DNA of 64,000 nt from an uncultured Dehalococcoidaceae bacterium (GTDB taxonomy: Bacteria > Chloroflexota > Dehalococcoidia > UBA2979): positions 265,493-329,492 of the forward strand of contig CAYZJO010000002.1 in NCBI GenBank assembly GCA_964479165.1. Reading direction: 5' to 3'. Each line of letters starts with the position of its first letter. Within the stretch, counting starts at the first letter, position 1. The translations under genes were made by a program, and so were the position numbers. The notes beneath the pieces are model-generated. The model had not been told where the DNA came from. It saw nothing but the letters and a program-made list of their open reading frames with translations, and searched no databases. Of this stretch, positions 1-22,400 are shown one piece after another.

Positions 1-490
1 ACGGCTGTGCGTCTTCGAGCTGCGTATTGTTCCCCAGGCGAGCATCCTCACTGAGCACCGTACCGTTCCCGCGGTCGGTAACCAGCGGCGTCCGGCCCGT
101 GGCCAGCTCGAGGGCGCGCCGCAGTCCTCGACGTGTCCCACGCCACCGATGCAGCTCGAGCGCCTCGCGGATCAGCCGCCCGCGCGCCTCGTGCGAGAGG
201 CGCGCGAACGGCCCCGTCGACTCCTCGCCGAGCCAGTCGCCCAGCAGTTGCTGGAGTGCCGGCGGGGCAATCACGGGGTCGAAGTAGTCGGGGAGCGTCG
301 AAGCCATCTGGCGCACCGGTGTGTGGATGTCCTCGAAGATGCGCAGGAAACGCCCGATGAACGGGTCCTGCTCGTAGATCGAGGGAAGGTAGCGCAGCAA
401 CCGGCTCGGCTCGACGTGGGTCGTCTCGAGGTCGAAGTCGGGCACGTCCGCTCGTGGTGCAGGGCCGGCTCCGGGGGCGATCGTGACCAT
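1..490 (-). CDS. Afp12 / phage tail protein I (gpI)-like baseplate protein, N-terminal part only; gene continues beyond the window start
   Basis: My own translation of the reverse strand from an ATG at 488-490 gives MVTIAPGAGPAPRADVPDFDLETTHVEPSRLLRYLPSIYEQDPFIGRFLRIFEDIHTPVRQ... with no stop down to position 1. The LLRYLPxxY...FLRxFE pattern is typical of the gpI/Afp12 N-terminus. It starts 10 nt after the baseplate J stop. It is absent from the ORF track because it runs off the edge. Confidence 0.55.
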   Translation of the reverse strand, partial: MVTIAPGAGPAPRADVPDFDLETTHVEPSRLLRYLPSIYEQDPFIGRFLRIFEDIHTPVRQMASTLPDYFDPVIAPPALQQLLGDWLGEESTGPFARLSHEARGRLIREALELHRWRGTRRGLRRALELATGRTPLVTDRGNGTVLSEDARLGNNTQLEDAQP

Positions 491-500
491 GGGCCGCCTC

Positions 501-2465
501 CTACTCCACCGTCTCGGCGAGGACGAAGCAACTCCCGAGGACGAGCAGCCCGTTCGCAGGCGCGTCCGCCCGCGACGTCTGCTGGTCGCCGACGCGCATC
601 CGGACCCGCTCGACGAAGGCAACACCCGGCAGGTTCTGCAGCGCGGCCGCGATCTGCGACTCGGTCACGCCCGAGCCGAGCTCCCACCCGCGTCCTCGGG
701 GACCGCCTACGAGCGGATTGAGGAAGCGACGGAGTGCTGCCTCGGCACGGGCGGTCATCTCCTCAGTACCAATCCCCTGCTCCACGAAGAGGTGCGCGTC
801 GATGTCGACGATGGCGTTCGCCGGCCCGACGTACTCGACGGTCGTCCCGAGGATCTTGCGCTCGTCGATGCTGGCGCTGACCTCGCGGATAAGCGCGCGC
901 GAGGGCGTCAGACCTTCCGCTGGCAGCGCGGCCTCGGGATCGCCGACATCAGGCACCACGACCAGCCTCACAACGCCGGGCGCGACGTCGAGGACGCAGT
1001 GCGCGCGGCCGACGCCGGGGATCGTGCTCGCGACGCGCTCGTAGTCGTCCTTGGTGACGACCGTCTCGGTCGTGTGCAGGACGGAAAGCGAGCGAAGTCG
1101 CGCCTCCTCGATGGACTCGCTGTCGAGCCCGCCGGTTGCGGGGCGGTAGTTCATGACCGCGCCGATGTACGGCACGGAGGAGCGCAGCTGCGTGATCGCG
1201 CCCTCACCGACGTTGCCCTCGGCGCCGCCGCCCGTGCGGTACGCCGTCATCACCAGGGTCTCCCCACGTCGCGGCGACGCGCCGAGCGTGCGCAGCGTGC
1301 CGTCGCGGCCTCGCATCGAGGAACCGAAGTGGACAACCCCGTTCTCGTAGTCGAGGACGAAGTGCAGGTCGTCGTCGCGCGACCCGCCGAAGTCGTCGAC
1401 CTCGGTCCATGTGCGCACCTCGGTGTCGCGCGTCCCCTCGATGGTGTGCGGCGTCGGGCTGCGCAGGACCGGGTGATCGCGCAGCTCAAGGACCTGCCCG
1501 GGCTCGCCATCGCCCTGCCCGAGTACCTCACCCTGCGCGAGGTAGGCGTGCCGCGCGCGCACCGTCGCAGCGATCGCGGCGGCTGCGATCGAGATGATGA
1601 CGGGTGACTGCTCATAGGCCTGGCCCGGCTTCAGCGTGTGTCGCACTCGGACCCACGTCGCCTCGACGCCGTCGACCGTCGTGCGTCGCGAGTCGATCGG
1701 GACGTGGAGGTAGAGATCGCCCGCGCGGTTGAGGCCGAGCGTCGGGTCCATGTCGCCCGGAGCGCGACGCCTCCCGGTGCCCGTGCTGTCGAGGAGGGGC
1801 AGCGACCGCCAGTCGCCGCGGTCATCCGACCAGTACTCCCACGACAGCGGCGGGTCGCGCGGATCGATGTGGGTCGCCGCGTGCAGGGCGGCGTCGATGC
1901 GCAGCTGCAGGCTCTGCCCCGCGAGATCGCCCTCGAAGCCGATGTAGAACGCGTCGCCGTCCTGCGGCTCCTCGTTGAAGATCGGCGCCTCGACGCGACC
2001 ACCGGTCGTGTACGGCAGGTAGTTCTCGAAGCCCGAACCCTGCCGCCACGCGCGCTGTGCGATGAGCACAGGCTGATCGATCGTCAGCGGCTCCATCGTC
2101 GCGAAGACAAGTGCCTCGGTGTCCTCGGTGCGGTCGGTCGCGACCTCGGTCTCTGCCGGCACGGTGAATGGACGCTGGAGCGGCGCCGACAGGTAGAAGG
2201 TGACGTCGACCTCGGCCGGAACGGGCGGGTAGCGCTTCACGCCGACCATGTCGAGGAAGCGCTCGTACATCGCGTCCGGCACGCGGTTGATCTGGTACAG
2301 CGTCATCTCGGTCATCCACGCGAATAGCTCGAGCAGCGTGATGCCGGGGTCGCTGACGTTATGGTCTGTCCACTCCGGGCAGTAGCGCGGGATCAAGCGT
2401 CGCGCCTCGTCGACGATGTCCTGGAACTCGCGCAGGTCGAGGGGCCGGTCGGGCGTCGTCACCAC
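501..2465 (-). CDS. baseplate J-like protein (Afp11-like, putative baseplate assembly protein)
   Basis: 654 aa with a GTG start. The N-terminus RYCPEWTDHNVSDPGITLLELFAWMTE matches the WTDHNxSDPGxTLLE signature of the baseplate_J / TIGR02243 family. It follows gp25 directly. Confidence 0.85.
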   Translation of the reverse strand: MVTTPDRPLDLREFQDIVDEARRLIPRYCPEWTDHNVSDPGITLLELFAWMTEMTLYQINRVPDAMYERFLDMVGVKRYPPVPAEVDVTFYLSAPLQRPFTVPAETEVATDRTEDTEALVFATMEPLTIDQPVLIAQRAWRQGSGFENYLPYTTGGRVEAPIFNEEPQDGDAFYIGFEGDLAGQSLQLRIDAALHAATHIDPRDPPLSWEYWSDDRGDWRSLPLLDSTGTGRRRAPGDMDPTLGLNRAGDLYLHVPIDSRRTTVDGVEATWVRVRHTLKPGQAYEQSPVIISIAAAAIAATVRARHAYLAQGEVLGQGDGEPGQVLELRDHPVLRSPTPHTIEGTRDTEVRTWTEVDDFGGSRDDDLHFVLDYENGVVHFGSSMRGRDGTLRTLGASPRRGETLVMTAYRTGGGAEGNVGEGAITQLRSSVPYIGAVMNYRPATGGLDSESIEEARLRSLSVLHTTETVVTKDDYERVASTIPGVGRAHCVLDVAPGVVRLVVVPDVGDPEAALPAEGLTPSRALIREVSASIDERKILGTTVEYVGPANAIVDIDAHLFVEQGIGTEEMTARAEAALRRFLNPLVGGPRGRGWELGSGVTESQIAAALQNLPGVAFVERVRMRVGDQQTSRADAPANGLLVLGSCFVLAETVE

Positions 2466-2489
2466 GGTGATGCCTCGCTCATTCCTCGG

Positions 2490-2954
2490 TTAGTCCTCGC
2501 CGATGAGGTAGAAGGGATAGACGAGCGTCCGGTCGTCCTTCGTCGCGCGGATCTGGTAGCCGATCTCGATGTCCACCCAGCCGTGCGCCGGCGTCGGCAC
2601 GATCTCGATGTTCACCACGTCGATGCGCGGCTCCCAGAACGCGAGCGCCTCTTCGACGTAGCGGCGCATGTATCCGAACGTCGTCGCGTTCAGCGGAGCG
2701 AAGACGAGCTCGTGGATCTGGCAGCCGAACGTCGGCCGCATCCGCCGCTCCCCCGGACGCGTTCCGATGATGATGCGGATGGCCTGCTCGATGTCCGTGT
2801 CGTAGCGCGCCATCGCGATGCCGCCGCGCGCACGGCTCACCGACGTCAGCTCGTAGGGCCTCCGCAGATCGACACGCACCGGGAAATGCCAGCCGACGCC
2901 GACAATCTGCTCCTCGACGTTGCCGTTCCGGCCGTTGCCGTTGCTCATCACCAT
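2490..2954 (-). CDS. GPW/gp25-family baseplate wedge protein (Afp9-like)
   Basis: 154 aa. IEQAIRIIIGTRPGERRMRPTFGCQIHELVFAPLN matches the GPW_gp25 core. Alternative start at 2948. Confidence 0.85.
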   Translation of the reverse strand: MVMSNGNGRNGNVEEQIVGVGWHFPVRVDLRRPYELTSVSRARGGIAMARYDTDIEQAIRIIIGTRPGERRMRPTFGCQIHELVFAPLNATTFGYMRRYVEEALAFWEPRIDVVNIEIVPTPAHGWVDIEIGYQIRATKDDRTLVYPFYLIGED

Positions 2955-2979
2955 CGCGGCGCGCTCCTGATCGCGTTGC

Positions 2980-4722
2980 TCATGGCCCGATCGCCACGTT
3001 GGGCGCCTTCACCTCGGTGCGGCCGCTGGCCTGCAACGTTGCGGTCGCGTTCGCCTTGAGGTTGAGCTGCGTCCCCGCCTCGACGCTCGTGGCGCCGGTC
3101 GAGCTCTTGAACGACAGCGAACCCGTTGCCTCGAGCTTGATGTCGCGGTCCGCCTTCATCTCGATCGATCCCTTGGCCTTGATCGTGACGTCGCCGTCCA
3201 TCTCGATCGTCAGGCTCTTCGCCTGCGTGTCGATCAAGAGCTTGTTGCTGCCGGTCGAGTCGACGATGGTGATGCCCGGCGAACTGCTGCTGTCGTCGAG
3301 GATGAGCGTGTGGCCCGTCCGCGACTTGATGATCCGGCGCTCCACCTGGCCGCCCGCGACGTTCTTCGAGCTCACCTCGGGCGGCTTGTCTCGCTGATTC
3401 CAGAGGCCACCGAGGACGAAGAGCTGATTGACGTCGCTCCCGACGACGAGCACTTCGTCGTCGACCTCGGGGAGGAACTGCACCCCGCGCTCGGCGCCCG
3501 CGCCCGGCGAGACGACGCGGCACCAGTGGCTCTCGACGTCCGCGCCGAGCGTCGGCAACTTCACCTTCACCCGGCCGCGGTCGCCTTCGTCGTCCTTGTT
3601 GTTCGTGACGATGCCGACCAGCATCTGCATCCCACCACCGGATCGCGGCGATAGCAGGCTGAGGACGTCCGTCGGGCGGCGTCCCGAGATGCTGAAGTGG
3701 TTGCGGTAGCCGTCCTGGCCGTAGCTGTGGGTGACGGCCGTGACGAAGTAGCTGCCGCTGAAGCGCTGCCCGGCGTTCTGGATCTTGAGCTCGCTCCCCA
3801 GGCGCAGCCGCGGATCGCCGATCGCCTCGCCCTCGGCGGTGATGAAGGCCTGCTCGAGCTCGTTGAGGGCGGCCTGTGCCAGCGCCGTCGCCTGCGTCAG
3901 GTTCACGATGTGCTCGCGGGCGATGACAACCTTCGCGCTGTCGTTGAACGACTTCTTGGCGGTGTCGCCGCCGGAAGACCGCTCCTCGACCTCGGTGGTC
4001 ACCTCGCCACGCTTCGCGGTTCCGACGATTTCTTCCTTCTTCAAGGGGTCCCAGCCGCGAACCTCGACTTCCTTCACCTGCTCGGACGCCGTGAGTTGGG
4101 CACGGAAGGACAGCAGGTTGTCGCCGTAGGTGAGATCGACCCCCTCCGCCTCAATGCTGGGCGGCGCTTTCATCACGAGCTTCTTGCCCTGCACCTGCAG
4201 CTCGAGGCCGTTGCGCTGGGCGCGGTCCTGCAGGAACTCCCAGTCCGTCCGGTTGTCCTGGAGGACGTAGGCGTGCACCGGCCTCGTGGTGGTGACCTCC
4301 GCGGTCATCCCGCGCTCCTGTGCGATCTTCCGAGCAATGTCCGCGTCGGACATGCTGTTGAAGACGCGCGTCTGGCGTCCGCGGTGCAGGCGGTAGCCCC
4401 GGTCGTAGGCACGCACGACCAGCTGCGCGACGCCGGCCATGTCGTTGTTCAGCTCGATTCCCGTGATCTCGCCGACGAACACCTCCCGACGCAGGTTGTT
4501 GCTGCCGAGTTCGATGGTCAGCTCGGCGCCGATCTTCATCTGCGTCGAGTCCGACCACTCGAAGTCGAGGTCCCCGAACGTCAGCGTGGCCATGTCCGGC
4601 AGGTGCACGCTGCTGTCGACCTCGAGCTCGAGGAGGTCGGCGAGCATCGCGTCAGGAATCGCCGCTCCGTTCGCCTTGATGAAGGCCTGTGCGACCGCGC
4701 GTTCGGCGACGTCACTCGGCAT
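2980..4722 (-). CDS. VgrG / phage late control gene D-like spike protein (Afp8-like) with C-terminal beta-helix repeats
   Basis: The ORF track extends to 4773, but an ATG at 4720-4722 (MPSDVAERAV...) removes the overlap with the upstream LysM gene. The protein has a gpD-like N-terminal region and a C-terminus with gp5-like repetitive beta strands (DGDVTIKAKGSIEMKADRDIKLEATGSLSFKSSTGATSVEAGTQLNLKA). Confidence 0.85.
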   Translation of the reverse strand: MPSDVAERAVAQAFIKANGAAIPDAMLADLLELEVDSSVHLPDMATLTFGDLDFEWSDSTQMKIGAELTIELGSNNLRREVFVGEITGIELNNDMAGVAQLVVRAYDRGYRLHRGRQTRVFNSMSDADIARKIAQERGMTAEVTTTRPVHAYVLQDNRTDWEFLQDRAQRNGLELQVQGKKLVMKAPPSIEAEGVDLTYGDNLLSFRAQLTASEQVKEVEVRGWDPLKKEEIVGTAKRGEVTTEVEERSSGGDTAKKSFNDSAKVVIAREHIVNLTQATALAQAALNELEQAFITAEGEAIGDPRLRLGSELKIQNAGQRFSGSYFVTAVTHSYGQDGYRNHFSISGRRPTDVLSLLSPRSGGGMQMLVGIVTNNKDDEGDRGRVKVKLPTLGADVESHWCRVVSPGAGAERGVQFLPEVDDEVLVVGSDVNQLFVLGGLWNQRDKPPEVSSKNVAGGQVERRIIKSRTGHTLILDDSSSSPGITIVDSTGSNKLLIDTQAKSLTIEMDGDVTIKAKGSIEMKADRDIKLEATGSLSFKSSTGATSVEAGTQLNLKANATATLQASGRTEVKAPNVAIGP

Positions 4723-4724
4723 CG

Positions 4725-5369: not shown

Positions 5370-5383
5370 CGCCGGTCCTCCTC

Positions 5384-8237: not shown

Positions 8238-8451
8238 CGCCCGCTACCTCCAGCGCTCGATGCCACCGCCGCGGCGCTCGCGCTGACGCGCGAGGTCCTC
8301 GGCGAGCAGCCGGTAGACGCGCTCGGTGAGCTGGTCGAGGGCGCGCTCGGACAGGGCCGCCGGCTCTGCGGTCGGAGTCCCGGTGTTGGGCGCAGCCTCG
8401 ATGGGCTCGTTCATGCGGTCTCGGTTCCTTCGACGGCGCGGGCGTCGCGAC

Positions 8452-8714
8452 TCACGAACGCCCGGCGTTCATTCGCTCGTTGATGCGGCTGATCTCCTCA
8501 GCCCAGGCGCGGCGCTCCCGGTGCTCGAGGCGCAGCACTTCGTCTCGCGGCCAGTGGAAGTGGTACGAGACGAAGGCTGCCTCCTCCAGCAGTTGCTGCT
8601 CCGGGTAGCCGACGGCGCTCCAGTGCCGGCCGAGCCGCCGCAGCCCGAACTCGCCGAGCTCCTTGCTCAGCGTGTCATCGGCGGCAGGCCCGCCGCCGCG
8701 AGCGCCCGTTCCAG
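8452..8714 (-). CDS. -1 frame extension ORF; candidate transframe C-terminus of the upstream CxxC protein (tail assembly chaperone-like). It has no independent start codon.
   Basis: This -1 frame segment encodes a protein-like sequence (…LSKELGEFGLRRLGRHWSAVGYPEQQLLEEAAFVSYHFHWPRDEVLRLEHRERRAWAEEISRINERMNAGRS). There is no in-frame ATG/GTG/TTG after the stop of ORF 8667..9137. The only in-frame start (GTG 8823) would add a junk-like Arg/Gly N-terminus. Confidence 0.4.
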
Positions 8715-9137
8715 GAAAGGGTTCGGGGCTCCGCCGACCTCCACCGGCGCCGCCTCGGCGGCCGGCAGAGGCAACGGCGCATCGTCCTCCTCGAGCGACA
8801 TCGGGACGAAGTGCTCGCCGCACGCCGGGCAGCGGACGCTGCCGCTGTCGTCCACGAGCTCGTTGCGCTGCCGGTAGAACTCCTGGAGGAACGCGAGGTC
8901 CGTCGTGAACAGCCCCTCGATCACCCCCGTGTCGACCTGCGGCAGCGTGCCGAGCTTCGTGATCACGCGCGCCAGCAGCACCACCGTGTGGTACGCGGGG
9001 TTCTGCCGGACGCGCGGGTCGCGCAGCGGCGTGATCTCGTCCATCGCCGTCGCAAGCCGCATCGTGCCCTTGCGGTGCAGGTTGCCCGCCCGGTCGACGA
9101 AACCTCGCGGCAGGAAGAACTCGAACTCGGTTTGCAT
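8667..9137 (-). CDS. eCIS-associated hypothetical protein with a CxxC motif (RCPACGEHF); candidate tail-assembly chaperone. Zero-frame product is 156 aa.
   Basis: Its start overlaps the upstream tube gene stop (TGATG). It lies between the two tube genes. I recognise no named domain. Confidence 0.6.
   Translation of the reverse strand: MQTEFEFFLPRGFVDRAGNLHRKGTMRLATAMDEITPLRDPRVRQNPAYHTVVLLARVITKLGTLPQVDTGVIEGLFTTDLAFLQEFYRQRNELVDDSGSVRCPACGEHFVPMSLEEDDAPLPLPAAEAAPVEVGGAPNPFLERALAAAGLPPMTR
8715..8721 (-). promoter_or_regulatory. candidate -1 programmed ribosomal frameshift slippery heptamer C CCU UUC (Pro140-Phe141 of ORF 8667..9137)
   Basis: X XXY YYZ pattern in the zero frame. After a -1 slip the reading continues PGTGARGGG...LSKELGEF in the 8452..8823 frame. 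A 7-bp GC hairpin (cggcggc/gccgccg, 8679..8698) lies 16 nt downstream. Confidence 0.35.
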
Positions 9138-9601: not shown

Positions 9602-9656
9602 GTGCTGTTCCTTTCGCGGTCAGACCGCCGAAACGCGTGCGGCTGCGAGCCGGGCG

Positions 9657-11267: not shown

Positions 11268-11342
11268 GACCTCTCCTCGCTGCTCTCCGCTCGGAGCGCC
11301 GGCGTCCTCGCCGAGGTCTCCGCGCTGCTGCTCCTGATGCCG

Positions 11343-12222
11343 CTAGTCCTCCGACCGCTCCCCTTCGCCTTCGGAGGGTTCGTCGCCCTCCGCAGTCGCG
11401 AGATCGAGCGTGAGCACGCTGCCATCCGCGTACGCGCCGGCGGGTTCTTCCGACGCGAGCCGAAGGATGTCTCCATTGATGGCCACAAGTGCCGCCGTCG
11501 AGCCGCGGCGGACGCCGCGCAGCTCGAACGTGCCGTCCGCGCGGCTGGTCGCCGCTGAGCGATCCATCCGCACCTGCGCGCCAGCGACGGGCTCGCCATC
11601 GCGCACGAGGCGTCCGGTTATGTCGACCGGGATGTCCGGACTGACCGAGACGGGCGGCGGCATGACGATGCGCCGCTCGAGGACGAGCGGGCCCTCGCGC
11701 TGGATCTCGAGCTCGATCGGGATCGTGACCGACACCCGGATCGACGGCCGCAGGTCGTTGTCGAGGACGCTCCAGATGTCCACGATGTCCTTGATGGCCC
11801 CCGGCTGCGCGACCATCATCGGGATCTCGTAGCTCTCGGGAATGACGCCGTCGAAGGCCTCGAGGGGCAGCGTGAGGTGGCGGAAGAAGACGCGCGCCGC
11901 CCCCGTCAGCAGGCGGTGCTCGTCCTCGACCTCGTTGGACCAGGCGGTCACGAGGTACGAGCACTCGACGCGGATCGGGGGCCGCTTGTCGACGAAGCCG
12001 CCGTTCATACGCCCGGTCTCCCAGGGCGCGGGACGCAGCGTCCGGTTCTCCTGCATGTGGTAGAGGAAGAGGTTCAGCGTCGGACGCGTGAGCCTCGACG
12101 TGTTGTCGCGGCTGGGCACGTCGAAGGTAATGTCGAAGCCGCCCGCCTCGATGCGCTCGACGACGGTCGGCATCTCGGTGACGAGCAACGTACGCAGCGC
12201 GCGGTCGAGATCATCGATCATG
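11343..12222 (-). CDS. DUF4255 (Pvc16_N) tail terminator/cap-like protein (Afp16-like)
   Basis: The ORF track extends to 12506, but the conserved family N-terminus MIDDLDRALRTLLV...PTLNLFLYHMQENRTLRP begins at the ATG at 12220-12222. The upstream 95 codons are an Arg/His-rich in-frame artefact. Confidence 0.65.
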
Positions 12223-12316
12223 GCGCGCGCACCGTAGCGGCACGCGATTGCTGAATCGTTGCTTGCTCGTTGATAGGCGGGCTCGCGGCCGCCAACGGTC
12301 GCCACCCGGCCGGCGA

Positions 12317-12646
12317 CTACGTCCCGAGGACCTGCACCTGCCCCGGGTTCGCGATGATCGCCGGTACCCCCGGCGACCCGCCCATGCACAGGCCGATGCT
12401 GCTGGCGAGCAGCACAGGGATGTTGTTCACGAAGGTGCTGACGGCGGGCATCGTCCACTGGATGCTGACGCACGGCGCTGGCGCGCCCGCGATGTTGAAC
12501 ACGCATCCGGCGATCATCGTGACGTCACTCACCACGAGGACCGGGGCACCGCCGATGAGCACGGTCGGGTTGCTCGGCACAGTTGTCGCCTGCCCACCAT
12601 GAGGGCACATGATGGTCGCGGACGCGTTGAGGATCGGCGCCGGCAT
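12317..12646 (-). CDS. PAAR-like spike-tip protein (Afp10-like)
   Basis: 109 aa, Gly/Pro/Ala/Val-rich, with MCPHGGQ...VLIGGAPVLV motifs typical of PAAR-like domains. An alternative start at 12610 would give MCPHGG. Confidence 0.55.
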   Translation of the reverse strand: MPAPILNASATIMCPHGGQATTVPSNPTVLIGGAPVLVVSDVTMIAGCVFNIAGAPAPCVSIQWTMPAVSTFVNNIPVLLASSIGLCMGGSPGVPAIIANPGQVQVLGT

Positions 12647-12675
12647 TGAGGGCGCTCGGAGCTACGGGTTGCGGG

Positions 12676-13488
12676 CTAAGCGCCTGCCGCCGCGCTCGGG
12701 CCGTGCGGGCTCCGGTGCAGCGACATCTGGATACCTTCCTCATCTTCTTCCGGCACGTCTTCCCGGTGGAGCGAGGGTGCGAGCTCGGGCTCCTCTTCCT
12801 CTTCGGGAAGCTCGCGTGCCAGCGTCGAGGACATCTGCAGCTCTTCCTCAGGCAGCTCCTCCCGGGCCAGCGCCGAGGACATCTGGAGTTCCTCCTCCGG
12901 CGCTTCCTCGCGGGCGAGCGAGGTGCTGATGCTCGAGGACGGCGCGGACGCGAGCTCCTTCGAGAACGCCGACGCTTCCTGCTCCGCGGCGTCCTGCGGG
13001 CTGCTCACCCGCATGTCGCTGCCGCCGACTCCACCTTCACCGCCGCGCTGCTGCACGACGTGCGTCAGCTCGTGCGCGAGGAGTTGGTCGCCGCCGCTCG
13101 TGCCGGGCTGGTACTTGCCCTGCCGGAAGAAGATGTCCGACCCCGTCGTGAACGCGTCCGCCGACACGGCGTGGTTGAGCAAGTTCGCCTCGGAGTCGTC
13201 GTGCACGCGCACGTCGCTGAGGTCCGCGCCGAGCGCACCGCCGACACGTCGCTGCACCTCCGTGTCGAGGGAGCGACCGCCGCCCCGCTTCGACTCGATG
13301 GCATCCTCGACAGTCGAGTCGACAGCCGGATGCTCCTCGTCATGCTCGGACCGCAGCAGTCGCTGGACGGCCGCGTTACCGAGGGTCGAGACCAGCGGCG
13401 GCCGCGGGCGCGCTGCCTGGGGGCCGTCGGCCTCCGTCTCGCGCTGCCTCGCCCGTACCTCGTCCGTGAGTTCGTGGTCGAGAGTCAT
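12676..13488 (-). CDS. DUF4157 (eCIS-associated, HExxH zinc-metallopeptidase-like) protein with acidic C-terminal tandem repeats
   Basis: GRSLDTEVQRRVGGALGADLSDVRVHDDSEANLLNHAVSADAFTTGSDIFFRQGKYQPGTSGGDQLLAHELTHVVQQ matches the DUF4157 core. I prefer the start at ATG 13486-13488 (MTLDHELT, RBS AGGAGA) over the 13539 start. N-terminal TLGNAAVQRLL motif. Confidence 0.8.
   Translation of the reverse strand: MTLDHELTDEVRARQRETEADGPQAARPRPPLVSTLGNAAVQRLLRSEHDEEHPAVDSTVEDAIESKRGGGRSLDTEVQRRVGGALGADLSDVRVHDDSEANLLNHAVSADAFTTGSDIFFRQGKYQPGTSGGDQLLAHELTHVVQQRGGEGGVGGSDMRVSSPQDAAEQEASAFSKELASAPSSSISTSLAREEAPEEELQMSSALAREELPEEELQMSSTLARELPEEEEEPELAPSLHREDVPEEDEEGIQMSLHRSPHGPSAAAGA
12800..12945. repeat. 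About three imperfect tandem copies of a 45-nt unit inside the DUF4157 gene
   Basis: The DNA units (…gccagcgtcgaggacatctgcagctcttcctc… / …gccagcgccgaggacatctggagttcctcctc…) encode LAREEAPEEELQMSS / LAREELPEEELQMSS / LARELPEEEEEPE. Confidence 0.6.
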
Positions 13489-13519
13489 GATGTCTCTCCT
13501 CGATTGCCGGTTCCGACGC

Positions 13520-15712
13520 TTAGCGTCGGGCCTCTTCATACCACTCTGCGAAGTCGGCCGTCGTAACGAGGCGGCCGAGCTTCTGATACTCGCGACGCGC
13601 CGCGCGGATCAGGTGGCGCATGCCGATCGGTCCGCCGTCCGCAGCCGCGAGGAACGCCGCCAGCACGGCGATGTTGCGGATGTTGCCGCCGGCCACTCGG
13701 AACTGCCTCGCGGCGAAGTCCAGGTCGAGGTCATCGGCGAGCGGCGCGTTCGTGCGGAAGTTGAGCTCCCAGATGCGGCGGCGGTCGTCCTCGTCCGGCA
13801 CGGGGAAGTCGATGATCGCCTTCAACCGCCGCAGGAACGCGTCGTCAAGGTTGGCCCGCAGATTGCTAGAGAGCACGACGATGCCGTCGTACTCCTCGAT
13901 CTTCTGGAGGAGGTAGCTGACCTCGATGTTGGCGTAGCGGTCGTGCGAGTCGCGCACTTCGGTGCGCTTGCCGAAGACGGCATCCGCCTCGTCGAAGAAG
14001 AGGATGGCGCTCGCGCCGCTGGCCTCGTCGAATACGCGCGCGAGGTTCTTCTCCGTCTCACCGATGTACTTCGAGACCAGGCCCGAGAGGTCGATCTTGT
14101 AGACGTCGAGGCCGAGCTCGCCAGCGATCACCTCGGCGGCCATCGTCTTGCCGGTGCCGGACTCGCCGACGAACAGTGCCGATACGCCACGCCCGAGGGA
14201 CGCCTTGCCCGCAAACCCCCACTCCTCGTAGACCACGTGCCGGTGCAGCACCTGGAGCGCGATCTCTTTGAGTTGAGTGATGCGCTCTTCCGGCAGGACG
14301 ATGTCCTCCCAGCGATAGCGCGCCTCGATGCGCTGTGCCACGTCTGCGAGCCGCGGCTGCGACTGCATCCGCGCCGCCGTCTGCAAGGCCTCGAGGCCCA
14401 CGCTCTCCTCCCCGCGCCACGTACCGAGGCTGCGCGCCATGCGCGCTGCCGACTCGATGTCGGCTGCACCGAGGCGGAACGTGGCCGCGAGCTGGTCGAG
14501 GTCGTCTGTGGCGGCCGCGTCGCCGGCGGCGGCGGCCCAACGCCTGCGGGACTCCTCGTAGGTCGGCTCGTGCACCTCCATCACGAGGTCGAGTACGGGT
14601 TCGCGCGCGGGCGGACGCGGGGCGCGGCCGCCGAAGAGCACCGGCAGGGGGTGATCCTCAAGGGTGCGCGCGATCAGCCGCCCGAACGGCTCGATCGCGC
14701 CGGGCCGCTCGCCGTCGTCGTCCCAGCCCTCGAAGTAGAGCGCGAGCCCGAGGACGCAGGCGTCGCGACGCAGCCGCTGGAGTGCCCGCGGGGCGTCGGC
14801 GGGAGCGCGTTCACGCAGTGCGCCTGTATCGATGCTGGCGAGCCCAAGGCCGAGTTCGGTGCACGCGACACCGATGCGAGCACGCTTCTCCGCGACCCAC
14901 CGCCCTGCGAGGTAGACGCGCGCGTCCATGCGTCCGCGCAGCACCTCGGCGAGCCTTGCGCCGTCCGCAAGGTCCGAGGGATACGGCTCCACCTCGAGCT
15001 CGACCAGTCGTGCAATGCCCTCGAGCCGCGGGTCGAGACTCGGCGTGGCGTCATCCCTGCCGAGCAGCAGCGTCGCGACGTGAGGGTCGAGCTGCACGGC
15101 GTGGGCGAGCAACGACGGCGCGACGGCTGCAGCGTCGTCGGCGGTGGACAGCAGTTCGTACGTGATCAGGGGCGCGTTGGGCTCGAAGAGGCGGCGCAGC
15201 GCCAGCGCCTCGCGCCGCCCATCCGCGATCAGGTCGAGCACGAGCCCGACCGTCGGACGCTTCCTCGTGACATCGTCGTTCACGTAGGCGAAGACCTTCG
15301 CGTACGCCTGGTCGAGGTGCGGCGCGAGCGCGACCACGAGCGCCTGGCGTTCCTCGGGCGAAAGCCCGAACGCGGCCACGAGACGCTCAAGCGGCAACGT
15401 CACCCCGGCTGCCACGGATGTAGCAGCGCGCGCGTCGAGGTCGGCGCGGGAGGCTGCGGCTGCTCGCCGCAGTTCGGCGAGTCCCCCCGGCTGCTCGTCC
15501 GGAACCCCGAGCAGGTCGTCAACCTCCTCGTCCGAGATGTAGAGCCCACGGTAGTCGTCGGCAGGACCGAGCGCGCGACGACGCCGGCCGCGCTCCACCT
15601 CGATGCGCAGGCGGAGCGCGAGCCAGCGCAGCTCCGCCTCGAGCTGGTCGAGCGACGACGCGAAGGGCTCCGGCGCCTCGATCGACAGCGGTGGTTCCGC
15701 GGTGAGCGTCAT
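13520..15712 (-). CDS. AAA+ ATPase of the eCIS (Afp15-like)
   Basis: 730 aa. Walker A GESGTGKT, ILFFDEADAVFGKR and the SSNLRANLDDAFLRRL sensor region at the C-terminus, with a long N-terminal domain as in Afp15/Pvc15. RBS GGAGAGG upstream. Confidence 0.9.
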   Translation of the reverse strand: MTLTAEPPLSIEAPEPFASSLDQLEAELRWLALRLRIEVERGRRRRALGPADDYRGLYISDEEVDDLLGVPDEQPGGLAELRRAAAASRADLDARAATSVAAGVTLPLERLVAAFGLSPEERQALVVALAPHLDQAYAKVFAYVNDDVTRKRPTVGLVLDLIADGRREALALRRLFEPNAPLITYELLSTADDAAAVAPSLLAHAVQLDPHVATLLLGRDDATPSLDPRLEGIARLVELEVEPYPSDLADGARLAEVLRGRMDARVYLAGRWVAEKRARIGVACTELGLGLASIDTGALRERAPADAPRALQRLRRDACVLGLALYFEGWDDDGERPGAIEPFGRLIARTLEDHPLPVLFGGRAPRPPAREPVLDLVMEVHEPTYEESRRRWAAAAGDAAATDDLDQLAATFRLGAADIESAARMARSLGTWRGEESVGLEALQTAARMQSQPRLADVAQRIEARYRWEDIVLPEERITQLKEIALQVLHRHVVYEEWGFAGKASLGRGVSALFVGESGTGKTMAAEVIAGELGLDVYKIDLSGLVSKYIGETEKNLARVFDEASGASAILFFDEADAVFGKRTEVRDSHDRYANIEVSYLLQKIEEYDGIVVLSSNLRANLDDAFLRRLKAIIDFPVPDEDDRRRIWELNFRTNAPLADDLDLDFAARQFRVAGGNIRNIAVLAAFLAAADGGPIGMRHLIRAARREYQKLGRLVTTADFAEWYEEARR

Positions 15713-15760
15713 GCCCTCTCCGAACGCTACCGGCTCAGTGTGCCGGATCGAGGTTGCGAG

Positions 15761-15779
15761 GCGATTGACGCGCGATTGA
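15761..15779. promoter_or_regulatory. direct repeats GCGATTGA-cgc-GCGATTGA (11-bp period), candidate SARP binding site / eCIS operon promoter element
   Basis: Located in the 73-nt gap between the SARP gene stop (15786) and the ATPase start (15712). The SARP family is known to bind direct repeats with 11-bp periodicity. Confidence 0.3.
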
Positions 15780-15785
15780 TGGGCG

Positions 15786-16799
15786 CTAATCGAGCCCGAG
15801 TTCGCTCAGCAGCGCCCGCGTCTCCTCGGACGGCGCAACATCGAACTCGGCGCGGAGGCGCTCCTCGCAGAGGCGGTACTGCCGCATCGCCTGGGCGCGG
15901 TTCCCCAGCATGGCGTGAGCGCGGACCACCCAGCGGTGCGCGGCCTCGTCGAAGGCGTCGCGCAGCACCAGCGTCTGGCCCAGCTGCAGCACTCGCGCCC
16001 ACTCCCCGCTCGCCGCGCCGTACTCGATCAGCCGCGCGACTGCCCACTCGTAGAGATTGCCGAGTGCCAGCCGCGGCTCGCCGGTCCATTCTTCTGTCAA
16101 GTCGGACTCGAGGAAGTCGCCGCCGTACTCCGCAAGTGCCGCATCGAGGCACGCCACCGCCTCGGCCTTCCGGCCCGCCGCGAACTCCGACTTCGCGCGA
16201 CCGACCGCCTCGCGGAACTCGACGGCGTCCACGTGCCACTCGAGCCCGCCATCGAGGCGGTACAGACCCTGCTCGACGAACAGCCCGCGACTTCCGTCGC
16301 CGTCACCCAGCCCCTCGCGAAGCCTCGAGCGGACGTGGTGCACGGCAATGCTGAGGTTGTTCGCACCTCGCGCGGGGTCGGAGTCCGGCCAGAACGTCTC
16401 GATGAGCGTCTCGCGCGCGGTCGGCCGCCCCGGCGTCAGCGCGAGGTAGGCGAGCAACTGGCGCGCCTTGCGGCTGCGCCAGCGATCGACAGGCCGCCCA
16501 TCGATGCTCAACTCGAACGCGCCGAGCAGGCGCACGCGGACCTCGGGAACCGGGGGCGCGGACGCCTCGACCTCGATCACCGGCGCCTGACGGGTGGCTG
16601 CCGCCTCGAGACGCGGAGCCACCAGCGCGAACAACCTCGCCTGCTCGCTGCGCAGTTCCGCGAGCTCGGCCCGCGTCTCGACCATCAGGCTGTGTAGCGC
16701 GTCGAGGCGATCGAAGACCGCGACGGCAGCGACATCGTCGGGCGTGCGGTCGCGCAGGACGAACGGCAATTGCGGTTGAGCGGCGAAGGCGATCCGCAT
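15786..16799 (-). CDS. SARP-family transcriptional regulator (OmpR-type winged helix plus BTAD domain)
   Basis: VRVRLLGAFELSIDGRPV...RKARQLLAYLAL...RETLIETFWPD...ANNLSIAVHHVRSRL followed by a TPR-like BTAD region. Co-oriented with, and immediately upstream of, the eCIS ATPase gene. Confidence 0.8.
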   Translation of the reverse strand: MRIAFAAQPQLPFVLRDRTPDDVAAVAVFDRLDALHSLMVETRAELAELRSEQARLFALVAPRLEAAATRQAPVIEVEASAPPVPEVRVRLLGAFELSIDGRPVDRWRSRKARQLLAYLALTPGRPTARETLIETFWPDSDPARGANNLSIAVHHVRSRLREGLGDGDGSRGLFVEQGLYRLDGGLEWHVDAVEFREAVGRAKSEFAAGRKAEAVACLDAALAEYGGDFLESDLTEEWTGEPRLALGNLYEWAVARLIEYGAASGEWARVLQLGQTLVLRDAFDEAAHRWVVRAHAMLGNRAQAMRQYRLCEERLRAEFDVAPSEETRALLSELGLD

Positions 16800-16933
16800 C
16801 GAGGAGCCTCGGTCGGGGAGACCGCGGACGCCGGCACCGTCTCTGCCTCGTGCTATGGCGGCGGCGGCGAACGCGCGGCATTATACCAACCGCACGGACG
16901 CACACCCTCTTGTCGTCGAACAGGATTCCCTCG

Positions 16934-19159
16934 ATGACTCAGTCTCGCCTCGGCGACCTCGGGACGGGCGGTGGCGGTCTGCCCTGGGGCAAGATCGGGA
17001 TCGGCGCGGGCATTGTGGCGCTGCTGCTCCTCCTGTTCTTCCTCGTCACCAGGGGCGGGGACGACGAGGAGTCGCTGGAGCAGGGACCGCAGTCAGCGGT
17101 GATGTGCCTTCCCGAGGAGGAAGTCGGCGCGTCCGCCGGCACCTCGGTCGCGACGCCCGCAACCACGGGGGCGGGCGTGGGCGTCGAGGGCGCACCACCG
17201 AAGATGGTGGGCGGCGTCGAGCTCTACTTCCAGAACGATCCGCGCTGGGCCAACACGGAGTACGCCTTCTCGACTGCCCTGCCGCAAGGCAAGGACTGGT
17301 GCGGCACCACGATCGGGCAATGCGGCTGCGCAATGACCTCGCTCGCGAACGTCCTCGCCCTCTTCGACATGGTCAGCACCCCGATGGGCGAACCCCTCCA
17401 GCCCGAGAGCTTCAACGGCTGGCTCAACCGCGACGCTCAGTTCCAGGGTCAGTGCTTCATCAGCCCGGGCTACTACTGTGGCGAAGTCATCTGGACCGAC
17501 ATCCAGGCGTTCACGGCTCAGCGGCGACTGCAGGATCCGAGCCTGCCGCTCCTCCGTTTCCGCGGCCGGGGCAACGGCAGCGAGGCCGAGGTGCGCGCGG
17601 AGCTCGAGGCCGGACGGCCGGTCATCCTCGAGGTGCGCGGTCACTTCGTGCTCGCGGCCGGCCTCGAGAATGGCGAGATCGTCATCCAGGACCCGTACTA
17701 CCCCGAGCGCGATCGCTACGAGGACATCGCGCCGATGCTCATCAGCAGCCGCTTGTTCGAGGTGGCCGAGCGCGCGGGCGGCATCGTGGTCATGGCGCAG
17801 GGCGACACGCAGATCACCATCACCGACTCTGACGGCCGGGTCACCGGCACGACGATGGACGCCTCCGGCTCCGGCGAGACGCCGACCCCCGAGCCAGGCG
17901 AAGCAGAGATCCCCGGGTCGAGCGTCAACTTCGAGGACCGCTGGCGCGACCCGACCTGCACCGAGCGCGCGCCGGACCCCGACGACCCGGGCAACGTCCA
18001 GCTGTTCCTGCCGCACGCGGCGTCGGGCGACTACAACATCGACGCCCAGTTCCCCCCGGGCAGCGAACGCTGCATCGCGGTGTACTCCTACGCCGACGAC
18101 GGCACGGTCACGATCGAGATGATCTGCGGGACTGGCACCCTCGACGCAAACATCTCGTACTCCTCGGGCTCCTCAAGGTCGACTCCGACGCCGACACCGA
18201 GTCCGACCGCCACTCCGACCGCGGAAGCGACCGCGACCGCAACGCCGACACCGGAGCCCACGGAGGCACCGGCGACGGCCACCCCGACCCCGGAGCCGCC
18301 CACACCGTCGCCCACGGCCCCTCCGACGGCGACGCAGCCGCCGCGCACGCCGACCGCGGCGCCGACGCCAGTCGCACCAACGATCCAGTCGGTCACCTGC
18401 ACGCCCGCCTCGGTCTCCGTCGCCGCCTCGATTACGTGCCGCGCAACGGTCTCGGGGACGGCGACCTCGTACGCGTGGTCGTCGCAGGGCGTTCCGAGCA
18501 GCGGCGCGCAGGCCACGTTCACCACCAGCTTCCCCACGCCCGGTGCGAAACGCGTCGACTTCCGCGTGTGCAACGGAACGCGCTGCACGACGGGGTCCGC
18601 CAGTGTGACCGTGGTCGCGCCGCTCGATGCCTCGTTCAACTGCACGCCGACCAGCGTGAACGTGAATGCGAACGTGACGTGCACAGCCGCGAGGCAGGGG
18701 CAGGGGGCCTATAGCTGGAACGCAAGCGGCGGAAACCCGGCCAGCGGTGCCGGCACGACGTTTACGACGCGCTTCGGCACGGCAGGCTCCAAGACCGTCA
18801 CCCTCAACGTGTGCAACGCCTCTGGCTGTCAGCCGGCATCGAGGCAGATCACCGTGACGTCGCCGTTCACGGTCACCGCCTTCTGCAACCCGGGCCAGGC
18901 CACGTATGGGGACCCGGTCCACTGCGCAGCGCAGTTCAGCGGCGGCGTTCCGGAGACGTTCCAGTGGATCGTGGCGCCTGCCTCGGCCATCGAGTTCTTT
19001 GGCCAGGACACGCCGTCGTTCACCGTCTACTTCTACTCACTCGGCCAGTACACGGTCGCCGTGAACGTCTGCACCGAGTTCGGTTGTGCTGGAGACAACG
19101 TGATCATCACAGTCATCGAGGATGACTCCGACCCGCCGATCAACGGAACGCCTGACTGA
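16934..19159 (+). CDS. membrane-anchored secreted protein: C39-like (Peptidase_C39_2-type) cysteine peptidase domain, Pro/Thr-rich linker, three Cys-containing Ig/PKD-like repeats
   Basis: Start at ATG 16934 (MTQSRLGDL... then TM GIGAGIVALLLLLFFLV). LYFQNDPRWANTEYAF...CGTTIGQCGCAMTSLANVLALF resembles the C39_2 catalytic region. A linker TPTPTPSPTATPTAEATATATPTPEP follows. Three repeats of about 95 aa, each with CTP..V...TC.A...YSW...G..ASGA.TTFTT.F.T.G.K.V...VCN..GC. Confidence 0.55.
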   Translation: MTQSRLGDLGTGGGGLPWGKIGIGAGIVALLLLLFFLVTRGGDDEESLEQGPQSAVMCLPEEEVGASAGTSVATPATTGAGVGVEGAPPKMVGGVELYFQNDPRWANTEYAFSTALPQGKDWCGTTIGQCGCAMTSLANVLALFDMVSTPMGEPLQPESFNGWLNRDAQFQGQCFISPGYYCGEVIWTDIQAFTAQRRLQDPSLPLLRFRGRGNGSEAEVRAELEAGRPVILEVRGHFVLAAGLENGEIVIQDPYYPERDRYEDIAPMLISSRLFEVAERAGGIVVMAQGDTQITITDSDGRVTGTTMDASGSGETPTPEPGEAEIPGSSVNFEDRWRDPTCTERAPDPDDPGNVQLFLPHAASGDYNIDAQFPPGSERCIAVYSYADDGTVTIEMICGTGTLDANISYSSGSSRSTPTPTPSPTATPTAEATATATPTPEPTEAPATATPTPEPPTPSPTAPPTATQPPRTPTAAPTPVAPTIQSVTCTPASVSVAASITCRATVSGTATSYAWSSQGVPSSGAQATFTTSFPTPGAKRVDFRVCNGTRCTTGSASVTVVAPLDASFNCTPTSVNVNANVTCTAARQGQGAYSWNASGGNPASGAGTTFTTRFGTAGSKTVTLNVCNASGCQPASRQITVTSPFTVTAFCNPGQATYGDPVHCAAQFSGGVPETFQWIVAPASAIEFFGQDTPSFTVYFYSLGQYTVAVNVCTEFGCAGDNVIITVIEDDSDPPINGTPD

Positions 19160-19210
19160 CCGTCACCACCTCGCGCCCGACTCGGGGCTGGCATGGGCCT
19201 GGCTGGCGCG

Positions 19211-20371
19211 TTACGGGACGTTCCCGCCGTCCACTGAGACTTGCGCGGCGGCTTCGTCAGCTGCGATCTGGGAGCGGATACCCTCGGCCGCAGTCAGCGC
19301 TTCCTCCATGTCTTCGTCGCTCGTCCACCAACCGAAGTGGCCCTTCGGAACCACACCCAACGCCTCGAGACGCTCCTCGACGGGTGTGCCCGGCGCCTTG
19401 AAGTAGGTGCTCTCGAAGAAGATGAATGGCCCATCGCCGGGCTTTTCCGTCACCTTGAGCGTTGGCAGCCAATTCGCCCAGATGCCCCGCTCGATCTTGT
19501 CGGCGAGCGATGCCTCGTCCACCGCGGGTGGCTGCTTCATCAGTGGATTGCTCTTCAGCCAGCCGTCGAGCACTGTCTTCACGCTGGGAGGATCGATGTC
19601 GTTGAACTCCGACAACTCCCAGGAGTCGAGCTGGGTCTTTGCCTTGACGATCGTCTGCTTCACCTGACGCCATGCCGCGCTGACCGCATTCTCGATGCTG
19701 TTCTGGTATTCGAGCGGTGCGAGGTTCACCTTCTGCGCGCTCGGCGACAGCGCGGCCGTCGCAACATCGAAGCTCTTCCCTACGGCGGCCTGCAGGGCAT
19801 CTTCGAGCATCCCAGCAGTCTTAGCTCCAATCTTGGGGATGCTCGTCAGCGCCTCGCCCATGCCCCCACTCATCCCGGTTGCGATAGCACTGAACACGCT
19901 CATCACGACTGACAAGTTGAGTGCGTTCACGCGGGCTGAGGCGTTCACGGCGTCCTCGTGACGCCGGTACGCCGTCGAGTACGCGGTTCCGACGCTACGC
20001 GCGTAGATCTCCCACGCCGTCTTGTTGTCCTCGAACTGGTCGCCAGCCGTATCAATGATGCGGTACGTCTTGTTCCTCTTCTGCTCCCACTCGAACTCCT
20101 CAGCAGTGGGTCCGTCCCGCTGGAGCACCCGCGAGGTCACGGATGAGGGTGCAAGCAACCGCTGGACGTACGAGTTGCCGCGCGTCCGTTGGAGGTGTAG
20201 TACGTGCCCTGCTGAACGCCGGACGTCCGGCGGGAGAGGCGGGGTGAGACCGCCCGCGCCGGCGTGATCTCGGAGAGAGACCGCCTCGTCAGACGGTTCG
20301 GACTCGATCGGCAGACTGCGCGCGACCACGTCGGACCGAGCGTCTACGCGCTCCACGGAACCTTCGGCCAT
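19211..20371 (-). CDS. hypothetical protein, candidate eCIS cargo/effector. It carries an N-terminal LHLQRTRGNSYVQRLL motif shared with the DUF4157 protein, and an amphipathic Gly-zipper-like segment.
   Basis: The ORF track extends to 20968, but that upstream part is an Arg/Ser-rich in-frame artefact. The ATG at 20369-20371 gives MAEGSVERV... (386 aa). I recognise no enzymatic motif. The segment LNLSVVMSVFSAIATGMSGGMGEAL is hydrophobic. Confidence 0.5.
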   Translation of the reverse strand: MAEGSVERVDARSDVVARSLPIESEPSDEAVSLRDHAGAGGLTPPLPPDVRRSAGHVLHLQRTRGNSYVQRLLAPSSVTSRVLQRDGPTAEEFEWEQKRNKTYRIIDTAGDQFEDNKTAWEIYARSVGTAYSTAYRRHEDAVNASARVNALNLSVVMSVFSAIATGMSGGMGEALTSIPKIGAKTAGMLEDALQAAVGKSFDVATAALSPSAQKVNLAPLEYQNSIENAVSAAWRQVKQTIVKAKTQLDSWELSEFNDIDPPSVKTVLDGWLKSNPLMKQPPAVDEASLADKIERGIWANWLPTLKVTEKPGDGPFIFFESTYFKAPGTPVEERLEALGVVPKGHFGWWTSDEDMEEALTAAEGIRSQIAADEAAAQVSVDGGNVP

Positions 20372-22394: not shown

Positions 22395-22400
22395 GGACCC

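Follow-up and report, generated by a model that had tools for sequence, protein, structure and literature searches.

A 64,000-nucleotide (nt) stretch of DNA from an uncultured bacterium (GenBank assembly GCA_964479165.1, contig CAYZJO010000002.1, positions 265,493 to 329,492; from here on, the window) encodes on its minus strand, between positions 1 and 16799, a complete set of contractile injection system (CIS) parts. The best explanation overall, and one that we consider quite probable, is that this locus represents a chromosomal CIS of lineage IId, the kind that has been studied as CIS-Sc/SLP and, recently, in Roseiflexus, Thermogemmatispora and Deinococcota. As such, it would be a further member of a described and structurally solved CIS lineage, in an uncultured, high-GC host that is probably Chloroflexota-related. 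Together with approximately 70 relatives, the locus appears, as far as the compared sequences indicate, to keep a phage-style -1 programmed frameshift in the gene for its putative tail assembly chaperone.

With regard to the lineage, six structural proteins were compared with the sequences of all solved structures (PDB), and the best match of each was a chain of the Streptomyces coelicolor CIS: 8bky_A for the sheath (E 6.7e-155, 520 bits, residues 2-534), 9gtp_1K for baseplate J (E 1.5e-116, full length), 9gtp_P for the LysM initiator, Cis7 (E 5.3e-32), 9gtp_a for tube 2 (E 3.3e-20), 9gts_0A for the cap, Cis16 (E 9.6e-19), and 9gtp_E for gpI/Cis12 (E 2.5e-16). Sheath bit scores, used here as a proxy for lineage in an assignment made without a tree, were 520 and 511 for Streptomyces CIS, 187 for Pvc2, 180 for tCIS, 169 for AlgoCIS, 162 for Afp2 and 63 for T4 gp18. 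The core set of Cis1a, Cis1b, Cis2, Cis7, Cis8, Cis9, Cis11, Cis12, Cis15 and Cis16 was found to be present in full (Pfam), and neither Pfam nor NCBIfam returned a fiber family match in the window or the 7 kb beyond it, other than a sub-threshold N-terminal match to CIS13_fam. Among plasmids, the sheath was most similar to that of Streptomyces CIS loci (~47% identity) and, among phage genomes, to that of Bacillus phage BCD7 (33.6% identity). Identical proteins occur in soil and other metagenome runs, and the next sheath relatives, with 64-79% identity, are metagenomic as well, the named ones being labeled Dehalococcoidia bacterium, Chloroflexi bacterium or SAR202; a scan of genome contigs yielded a single Dehalococcoidia-labeled metagenome-assembled genome (MAG; sheath identity, 66%). 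Named homologues of the chaperone and of J carry the same labels as the sheath relatives and, additionally, those of Thermoleophilia, Gemmatimonadaceae and Thermogemmatispora. Because the best solved-structure matches are to S. coelicolor and the closest named homologues are labeled Dehalococcoidia or Chloroflexota, the locus would, on sequence grounds, be a lineage IId member of the Streptomyces/Chloroflexota type and not of the Afp/PVC type. Lineage IId groups the systems of Streptomyces, Roseiflexus, Thermogemmatispora and some Deinococcota, which assemble in the cytoplasm without subsequent release, have no tail fibers and, in Streptomyces, cause cell death under stress (PMC10066040, PMC10020575, PMC12237407, PMC12998442). 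An original prediction, made from the letters of the window, had described the locus as a near-complete, Afp/PVC-like extracellular CIS (eCIS). Its near-completeness inside the window was borne out by the Pfam matches, and the Afp/PVC-like label holds at the level of the superfamily, but, with S. coelicolor chains as the best PDB matches, not for the subtype and probably not for the mode of action; the term "extracellular" found no support, the studied members of lineage IId being intracellular (PMC10066040, PMC12237407, PMC12998442).

The same prediction had pointed to a phage-like gene order. This order is indeed present, but the succession of sheath, tube 1, chaperone, tube 2, LysM protein, VgrG, gp25, J and gpI was common to all loci with which we compared it, namely those on a Streptomyces clavuligerus plasmid (L091), in three relatives with J identities of 51-68% (L092-L094), in the Dehalococcoidia-labeled MAG (L005) and in Thermogemmatispora (L095). 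Among these loci, the long gene takes different places around tube 2 and, ahead of the sheath gene, the arrangement of the genes for the ATPase, the DUF4157 protein and the cap differs to some extent. The phage-like order thus characterizes the lineage rather than setting this locus apart. Its counterpart in phages is the tail module of Mu-like myoviruses, with which it is collinear, and not that of P2, the model suggested originally, in which V-W-J-I and FI-FII-E-T-U-D are separate blocks.

The putative chaperone gene, which encodes a CxxC (Zn-ribbon) protein, is followed by a DUF6760 domain that is encoded downstream of its stop codon, in the -1 frame. Between a GTG at position 8823, deep inside the CxxC gene, and a GTG at 8538, inside the domain, this frame contains no ATG, GTG or TTG, and gene callers leave DUF6760 uncalled, as a 253-nt gap in every identical contig. 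The predicted fusion of both frames has a length of 228 amino acids (aa), with the junction ...GGAPNPF-PGTGARGGGPAADD.... Used as a query, the fusion mostly matched CxxC proteins of 125-160 aa, some of which are named "phage tail assembly protein" by NCBI, but it also retrieved proteins of 163-177 aa in which DUF6760 is naturally fused within one frame (P0227, P0230 and P0248); to judge from these sequences, a two-domain chaperone-DUF6760 protein exists in nature. The first-frame protein itself matched PHROG 508, "tail assembly chaperone", and had no match in Pfam or NCBIfam. Its structural model had a mean predicted local distance difference test score (pLDDT) of 71 (~80 over the N-terminal domain), and the top fold match among PDB entries (Foldseek) was the HK97 tail assembly chaperone, a weak match with a probability of 0.87, an E value of 0.1 and TM scores of 0.36/0.49.

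A metagenome scan for such chaperone junctions produced 80 loci, corresponding to 72 non-redundant junctions, and DUF6760 was found in the -1 frame in 71 of the 72. A perfect X_XXY_YYZ heptamer was located in the overlap in 61 of these 71 loci: G_GGG_GGG in 34, G_GGG_GGA in 11, C_CCG_GGG in 8, C_CCU_UUA in 7 and C_CCU_UUC in 1. Within the final 12 codons of the first frame, such heptamers occupied 7.6% of the codon positions, compared with 0.33% in the remainder, a 23-fold enrichment. Nearly all of the scanned loci also carry both tube genes and therefore represent the same kind of module. We considered translational coupling as the general cause of the -1 frame, since an ATGA or GTGA overlap always gives that frame, but rejected it: no ATG, GTG or TTG was found near the junction in 46 of the 71 loci, and the frame was also -1 where the called start lies 26-41 nt past the stop. 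For Streptomyces, whose GTG overlaps the stop codon, coupling is possible. Taken together, the transframe open reading frame (ORF) would be the G/GT (in P2, E/E') arrangement of phages, preserved in an injection system, with the fusion as its predicted product. In the literature searched, we found no relevant mention of DUF6760, or of a frameshift in connection with CIS or eCIS, which is not proof that the matter is unpublished.

The nearest relatives (L005 and L010-L015) have the slippery site C_CCU_UUA, one or two codons ahead of the stop codon. UUA is expected to be very rare in such GC-rich genomes (66% GC in L005) and, because of this rarity, may promote the slip there as a slow A-site codon.

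The long gene in the tape-measure position encodes an 801-aa protein that consists of 18% alanine, 16% proline and 11% arginine, contains short repeats such as RRVFRR and has no match in Pfam, PHROGs, NCBIfam or PDB sequences. Only its ends are conserved in relatives, and it occupies the tape-measure position in L005 and L092-L094, too. Its last ~30 residues carry the motif L[DE]xLAxxVYxxLRxxLxxERERxGxG, which, in a motif alignment, was also found to end the 56-aa protein encoded just downstream of the chaperone gene. The same motif ends a DUF4157-bearing protein at the equivalent position in Thermogemmatispora and a 1383-codon open frame of S. clavuligerus. The latter frame is situated on plasmid NZ_CP065235.1 (L091 16786-20937), flanked by the DUF6760 gene and that of the second tube protein, and contains more than 20 "VQR(T/A)P" repeats; only its last 71 codons are annotated. 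The original proposal of the 801-aa protein as a tape measure thus stands as far as its position is concerned, which alone makes it a candidate, but no tape-measure family was matched and the protein is of low complexity and rich in proline, alanine and arginine. Tape-measure-related effectors paired with DUF4157 proteins have been described in actinobacterial CIS, and the particles of S. coelicolor are uniform in length, yet a tape-measure gene is stated to be absent from its cluster (PMC12237407).

The cluster runs on for ~5.1 kb past position 1, as read from metagenome contigs with an identical baseplate J (L001-L004), for which the identity of the overlap was checked; the rest of the baseplate and a gene in the fiber position, presumed in the original prediction to lie just outside, were indeed seen there. 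The gpI-like protein has a full length of 206 aa, ending ~130 nt beyond position 1 (L001 9679-10299), and is followed by a soluble 371-aa protein and by two paralogues of 558 and 670 aa. In NCBIfam, the match of the 371-aa protein was to the N-terminal portion of CIS13_fam (E 2.7e-10; 40 bits versus a cut-off of 370), the portion with which Anabaena Cis13 binds the baseplate (PMC8894136). Its C-terminal part is weakly DUF4159-like, and we found no hydrophobic helix in it and no meaningful match in the PDB. The two paralogues have immunoglobulin (Ig)-like NPCBM_assoc/FixG_C repeats, no signal peptide, and one hydrophobic helix near residue 485-505 that is followed by a short C-terminal tail, making them bitopic. 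They are homologous to a bitopic "hydrolase" of the S. clavuligerus CIS locus (E 1e-13), and their architecture, as predicted from sequence, matches that reported for the Sco4256-4258 effectors, which have a conserved N terminus, one helix and a variable C terminus (PMC10066040). All three proteins are conserved directly after gpI in three relatives (32-57% identity). In S. coelicolor, firing requires the membrane adaptor CisA, whose gene follows those of the baseplate in 79% of CIS-positive Streptomyces; the Roseiflexus system, like the present one, is without a close cisA homologue (PMC12998442). Because they are conserved at this place and no CisA-like protein was found by comparison with the S. 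clavuligerus protein in the CisA position, we regard the three genes after gpI as candidates for the membrane-docking or effector step. Farther downstream, genes for a glyoxalase, an LpqB_N-like protein, a DUF5671 protein, an enoyl-CoA hydratase and an amidase follow.

On the basis of these observations, we propose that the Zn-ribbon chaperone would be made in two forms, a 156-aa zero-frame product and a product of ~228 aa to which a -1 slip at C_CCU_UUC would add DUF6760, mirroring the G/GT or P2 E/E' pair of phages. Both forms would help to load the 801-aa protein, and perhaps the 56-aa protein, into the growing tube, and the role that we infer for the 801-aa protein is that of a length ruler, of cargo, or of the two combined. 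By analogy with characterized relatives, the particles would then contract and kill or lyse the cell that produced them, rather than being released against other cells. A cytoplasmic mode is documented for lineage IId (PMC10066040, PMC12237407, PMC12998442), and intracellular assembly and firing are predicted for the present locus.

Several observations weigh against this proposal. The 801-aa protein does not resemble a helical tape measure and, as mentioned above, matches no tape-measure family. The RNA fold after the slip site, with a stem that begins 6 nt downstream, was not clearly better than that of shuffled sequences (z -1.6; 11 of 200 shuffles equal). In some relatives, S. clavuligerus among them, a start codon is available for DUF6760, and frameshifting may therefore not be the sole route of its expression. 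A CisA-like protein was not found: in a BLASTP comparison of the downstream proteins with the S. clavuligerus protein in the CisA position, only a 40-residue match (E 0.011) was obtained. Finally, a protein with a Cis13-like, i.e., fiber-like, N-terminal domain follows the baseplate genes, with a match that is far under the NCBIfam cut-off; this leaves a surface-binding, extracellular mode as a less probable alternative.

We tentatively extend the proposal to the lineage as a whole, in a joint reading to which we assign somewhat less than an even chance. IId systems, including the Streptomyces ones that are said to have no tape measure, may have kept the tube-assembly trio of phages, consisting of a G/GT-like frameshifted chaperone, a long, disordered, Pro/Ala-rich protein that would set length or serve as cargo, and a shared C-terminal motif that would dock the long protein and the 56-aa protein into the tube or baseplate. 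In the Chloroflexota-type branch, the function of CisA as the membrane trigger would fall to the Cis13-like protein and the two Ig-repeat proteins.

If, instead, the locus encoded a true extracellular system of the Afp/PVC kind, lysis would set the particles free, and the Cis13-like protein would mediate their binding to other cells. The gene content does overlap with that of eCIS, the Cis13-like match covers the region that binds the baseplate in Anabaena, and a conserved gene for an exported C39-like peptidase with a PKD domain adjoins the locus. However, that match falls far short of the family cut-off, and the rest of the 371-aa protein is a globular, weakly DUF4159-like domain and not a fiber or receptor-binding part. 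A lysis cassette is missing from the locus and its immediate neighborhood and, unlike in Afp and PVC, there is only one sheath gene and toxin genes do not close the cluster. With all studied members of the lineage being intracellular (PMC10066040, PMC12998442), too, we consider an extracellular mode unlikely. A permanent hold of the baseplate at the cytoplasmic membrane by the Ig-repeat and Cis13-like proteins, as in the thylakoid-anchored Anabaena CIS or in type VI secretion systems of subtype iv, strikes us as very improbable. What speaks for it is the conservation of three genes directly after Cis12, two of which encode an N-terminal part of ~480 aa without a signal peptide, one hydrophobic helix and a short tail, and Anabaena Cis13 does anchor its CIS via a transmembrane helix (PMC8894136). 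The Cis13-like protein of the present locus, however, has no such helix, the Ig-repeat proteins resemble proteins of the Streptomyces locus that were described as effectors and not as anchors (PMC10066040), and the particles of relatives imaged so far float freely (PMC12998442).

We attach next to no probability to a defective prophage tail module or an R-type tailocin, even though all parts are homologous to myovirus tail proteins and both the chaperone frameshift and the tail-module gene order are phage-style. The presence of a CIS-specific Cis15 AAA+ ATPase, a Pvc16-type cap and a DUF4157 protein argues against it, as does the higher identity of the sheath to that of Streptomyces CIS loci than to the best phage match. 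No capsid, terminase, portal, integrase or lysis genes were found in the ~7 kb past position 1 or in 44 kb on the opposite side, although att repeats were not explicitly searched for, and the window contains no tRNA gene. With chromosomal flanks devoid of head, integrase and tRNA genes, the prophage reading is therefore unsupported, and the original choice of a CIS over a prophage was sound.

Compared system by system, the locus described here shares with CIS-Sc of S. coelicolor and SLP of Streptomyces lividans the single sheath gene, the two tube genes, the Cis15 ATPase, the Cis16 cap and the lack of an Afp13 fiber, as well as the gene order from sheath to Cis12, a cluster-linked transcription activator, bitopic membrane proteins whose N terminus is Ig-like, and a DUF4157 protein. 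It differs from them in its sheath sequence, in having no detected CisA homologue at the locus, in the presence of the Cis13-like/DUF4159 protein and two Ig-repeat membrane proteins after Cis12 and of a PAAR-like DUF4280 gene, and in a DUF6760 frame without a start codon of its own; the long gene of S. clavuligerus precedes tube 2, whereas the Pro/Ala-rich gene of the window follows it. With the Chloroflexota/Deinococcota clade (Gaisin et al. 2026, PMC12998442), it has in common its membership in lineage IId, the lack of a close cisA homologue and a SARP/BTAD neighbor, and the nearest named sheath, chaperone and J homologues are those labeled Dehalococcoidia, Chloroflexota, SAR202 and Thermogemmatispora. 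In Thermogemmatispora, however, J is only ~40% identical to that of the window, the gene in the tape-measure position bears DUF4157, Cis12 is fused to an FHA domain, and a kinase-FHA protein takes the place of the three downstream genes. In Thermogemmatispora tikiterensis (L095 12007-16298), the gene after this gpI-FHA fusion encodes a 1084-aa Ser/Thr kinase that has both FHA and FixG_C Ig-like domains, and these features suggest control of a related CIS by phospho-signaling.

Serratia Afp and Photorhabdus PVC (eCIS of lineage Ia) have homologues of Afp1/5, 2, 7, 8, 9, 11, 12, 15 and 16 in common with the locus, and the run 5-7-8-9-11-12 is collinear. In contrast to their three sheath genes, there is one here, the ATPase and cap genes are upstream of it, and a frameshifted chaperone is present; matches in Pfam, NCBIfam and PHROGs revealed no Afp13 fiber, no Afp14-type tape measure after a fiber and no Afp17/18-type toxins. 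With the phage chaperones (lambda G/GT, P2 E/E' and HK97), the locus shares two overlapping frames between a tube gene and a long gene in the tape-measure position, the second one in -1 and without a start codon, with an X_XXY_YYZ heptamer near the end of the first. The differences are that the arrangement is found in a CIS, that the first frame carries a Zn-ribbon, that the fusion product is predicted from sequence, and that the chaperone gene is separated from the long gene by the 56-aa gene and the second tube gene. As in the thylakoid-anchored CIS of Anabaena (PMC8894136), a protein with a CIS13_fam-like N terminus, albeit with a match far under the threshold, follows the baseplate genes, but the 371-aa protein has neither the transmembrane helix nor the helical fiber.

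Features of the CIS locus and its immediate neighbors in the window
Feature	Position	Strand	Support
Cis12/gpI-like baseplate wedge, N-terminal 163 aa	1-490 (ORF 2-490)	-	Pfam Tail_P2_I E 5.6e-5
Cis11/baseplate J-like wedge, 654 aa	501-2465	-	Pfam Baseplate_J E 1.8e-23
Cis9/gp25-like sheath initiator, 154 aa	2490-2954	-	Pfam GPW_gp25 E 2.9e-25
Cis8/VgrG-like spike, 580 aa by gene callers	2980-4722; longest ORF to 4773	-	Pfam Phage_GPD + Phage_base_V
Cis7/LysM tube initiator, 214 aa	4725-5369	-	Pfam CIS_tube E 1.9e-29, LysM
Pro/Ala/Arg-rich low-complexity protein, 798-801 aa	5384-7789	-	Tape-measure position, no family
Cis1b/second tube protein (tube initiator layer), 151 aa	7782-8237	-	Pfam Phage_T4_gp19 E 1e-38
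Conserved 56-aa protein	8244-8414	-	Called in all identical contigs; homologues in L005, L092-L094
DUF6760-coding -1-frame extension	8452-8721 (open frame 8452-8823)	-	Pfam DUF6760 E 2.7e-17
Slippery heptamer C_CCU_UUC (putative)	8715-8721	-	Zero frame AAC CCU UUC = N-P-F, 8715-8723
Tail-assembly-chaperone-like Zn-ribbon (CxxC) protein, 156 aa, zero-frame product	8667-9137	-	PHROG 508 E 2.5e-6
Cis1a/inner tube, 154 aa	9137-9601	-	Pfam Phage_T4_gp19 E 9.3e-36
Cis2/sheath, 536 aa, sole sheath gene	9657-11267	-	Pfam Phage_sheath_1 + Phage_sheath_1C
Cis16/cap, 292 aa, CarboxypepD_reg-like C terminus	11343-12221 (longest ORF to 12506)	-	Pfam Pvc16_N (formerly DUF4255) E 2.1e-29
PAAR-like DUF4280 protein, 109 aa	12317-12646	-	Pfam DUF4280 E 3.2e-4, 21.7 bits (under the Pfam cut-off of 26.3 bits)
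DUF4157/eCIS_core protein, 270-287 aa, HExxH motif	12676-13488 (longest ORF to 13539)	-	Pfam eCIS_core E 1.8e-31
Cis15/AAA+ ATPase, N-terminal winged-helix domain, 730 aa	13520-15712	-	Pfam WHD E 4.6e-46, AAA E 7.5e-25
SARP-family regulator, 337 aa	15786-16799	-	Pfam Trans_reg_C + BTAD
Membrane-anchored Peptidase_C39_2 + PKD protein, divergent from SARP gene	16850-19159	+	Pfam
386-aa protein, no family	19211-20371	-	N-terminal motif LQRTRGNSYVQRLL

Since the GC content of the window is ~69%, spurious ORFs are abundant. Gene frames were therefore chosen by third-position GC (GC3 frame plots) and then checked against Pfam, and the plots agreed with the assigned frames across the CIS cluster. All genes listed in the original prediction turned out to be present on the minus strand, at the expected place and with matches to the expected families in the Pfam profile search, and the tight packing was confirmed, with intergenic gaps of 1-95 nt; only the conserved 56-aa gene had been overlooked. 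Likewise, the claim that the core contains neither an Afp13-type fiber nor a recognizable toxin domain held up against Pfam and NCBIfam. The prediction erred with respect to the C39-PKD gene, a real gene on the plus strand, the minus-strand ORFs there being shadows. Two further ORFs, at 12923-16354 (+) and 18088-18684 (-), were rejected as genes and represent antisense shadows in DNA of this GC content; the former, of 1143 aa, sits opposite the ATPase gene.

The DUF4280 protein, of a family that we take to be PAAR-like, would form the tip of a baseplate otherwise composed of Cis7, Cis8, Cis9, Cis11 and Cis12; it has an MCPHGG motif in its sequence. The DUF4157/eCIS_core protein is a candidate cargo adaptor or effector, following the role proposed elsewhere (PMC13277306, PMC11126660). 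In its C-terminal third, this protein (gene at 12676-13539) ends in acidic tandem repeats, LAREE-PEEELQMSS, in three or four copies.

That a SARP regulator and accessory genes flank the cluster, as originally predicted, was corroborated by Pfam and by the neighbors found in relatives. A SARP/BTAD gene adjoins the CIS locus in four of the compared loci (L091, L093, L094 and L095), and a homologue of the C39-PKD protein (36% identity over 425 aa), which in the window has one hydrophobic segment at aa 43-71, is divergent from the SARP gene in L093, too. Both are likely true accessory genes. In the case of the 386-aa gene, no family was matched and no counterpart was found in L093. The N-terminal LQRTRGNSYVQRLL of its product resembles GNAAVQRLL of the DUF4157 protein, a likeness of 11 residues with a pairwise E value of 0.10, and this leader-like motif was found in these two ORFs only when all six frames of the window were searched. 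With a single-sequence AlphaFold model that is unusable (pLDDT 46), we consider the 386-aa protein a weak cargo candidate. A scan of positions 11200-20500 yielded no sigma-70-like promoter sites, and terminator-like sites were no more common there than in shuffled sequences.

The remainder of the window (20.4-64 kb) contains ordinary chromosomal genes, including those for an AlkZ-like glycosylase, a HerA-like ATPase, an aldo-keto reductase, SUI1, two-component systems, alpha-amylase-family enzymes and a desaturase. The HerA/DUF87-like P-loop ATPase (818 aa; 22170-24857, minus strand) has a 74-aa DUF2267-like ORF just downstream. At 38690-39711 (minus strand), a gene for a Phage_holin_3_6 ("actinobacterial Holin-X") protein is located beside a 192-aa ORF without a family, ~20 kb from the CIS locus and isolated from any other phage genes. 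A cluster at 44982-54928 contains four genes of the alpha-amylase family, one of which has CBM_48, as well as luciferase-like monooxygenases, and seems to serve ordinary trehalose/glycogen metabolism.

In itself, the locus extends a known lineage by another host, and what lends it interest is its apparent, conserved frameshift together with the tape-measure-position gene. The point in the literature on which it bears is the uniform particle length of S. coelicolor without a tape-measure gene (PMC12237407) and, likewise, the loading of cargo. In the locus and approximately 70 relatives, a chaperone gene with a putative frameshift is followed, one or two genes downstream, by a long low-complexity gene with a conserved C-terminal motif, and, as a candidate basis of both length control and cargo loading, this combination can be tested directly. 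Similarly, the three conserved genes after the baseplate genes are candidates for the membrane trigger in lineages without CisA.

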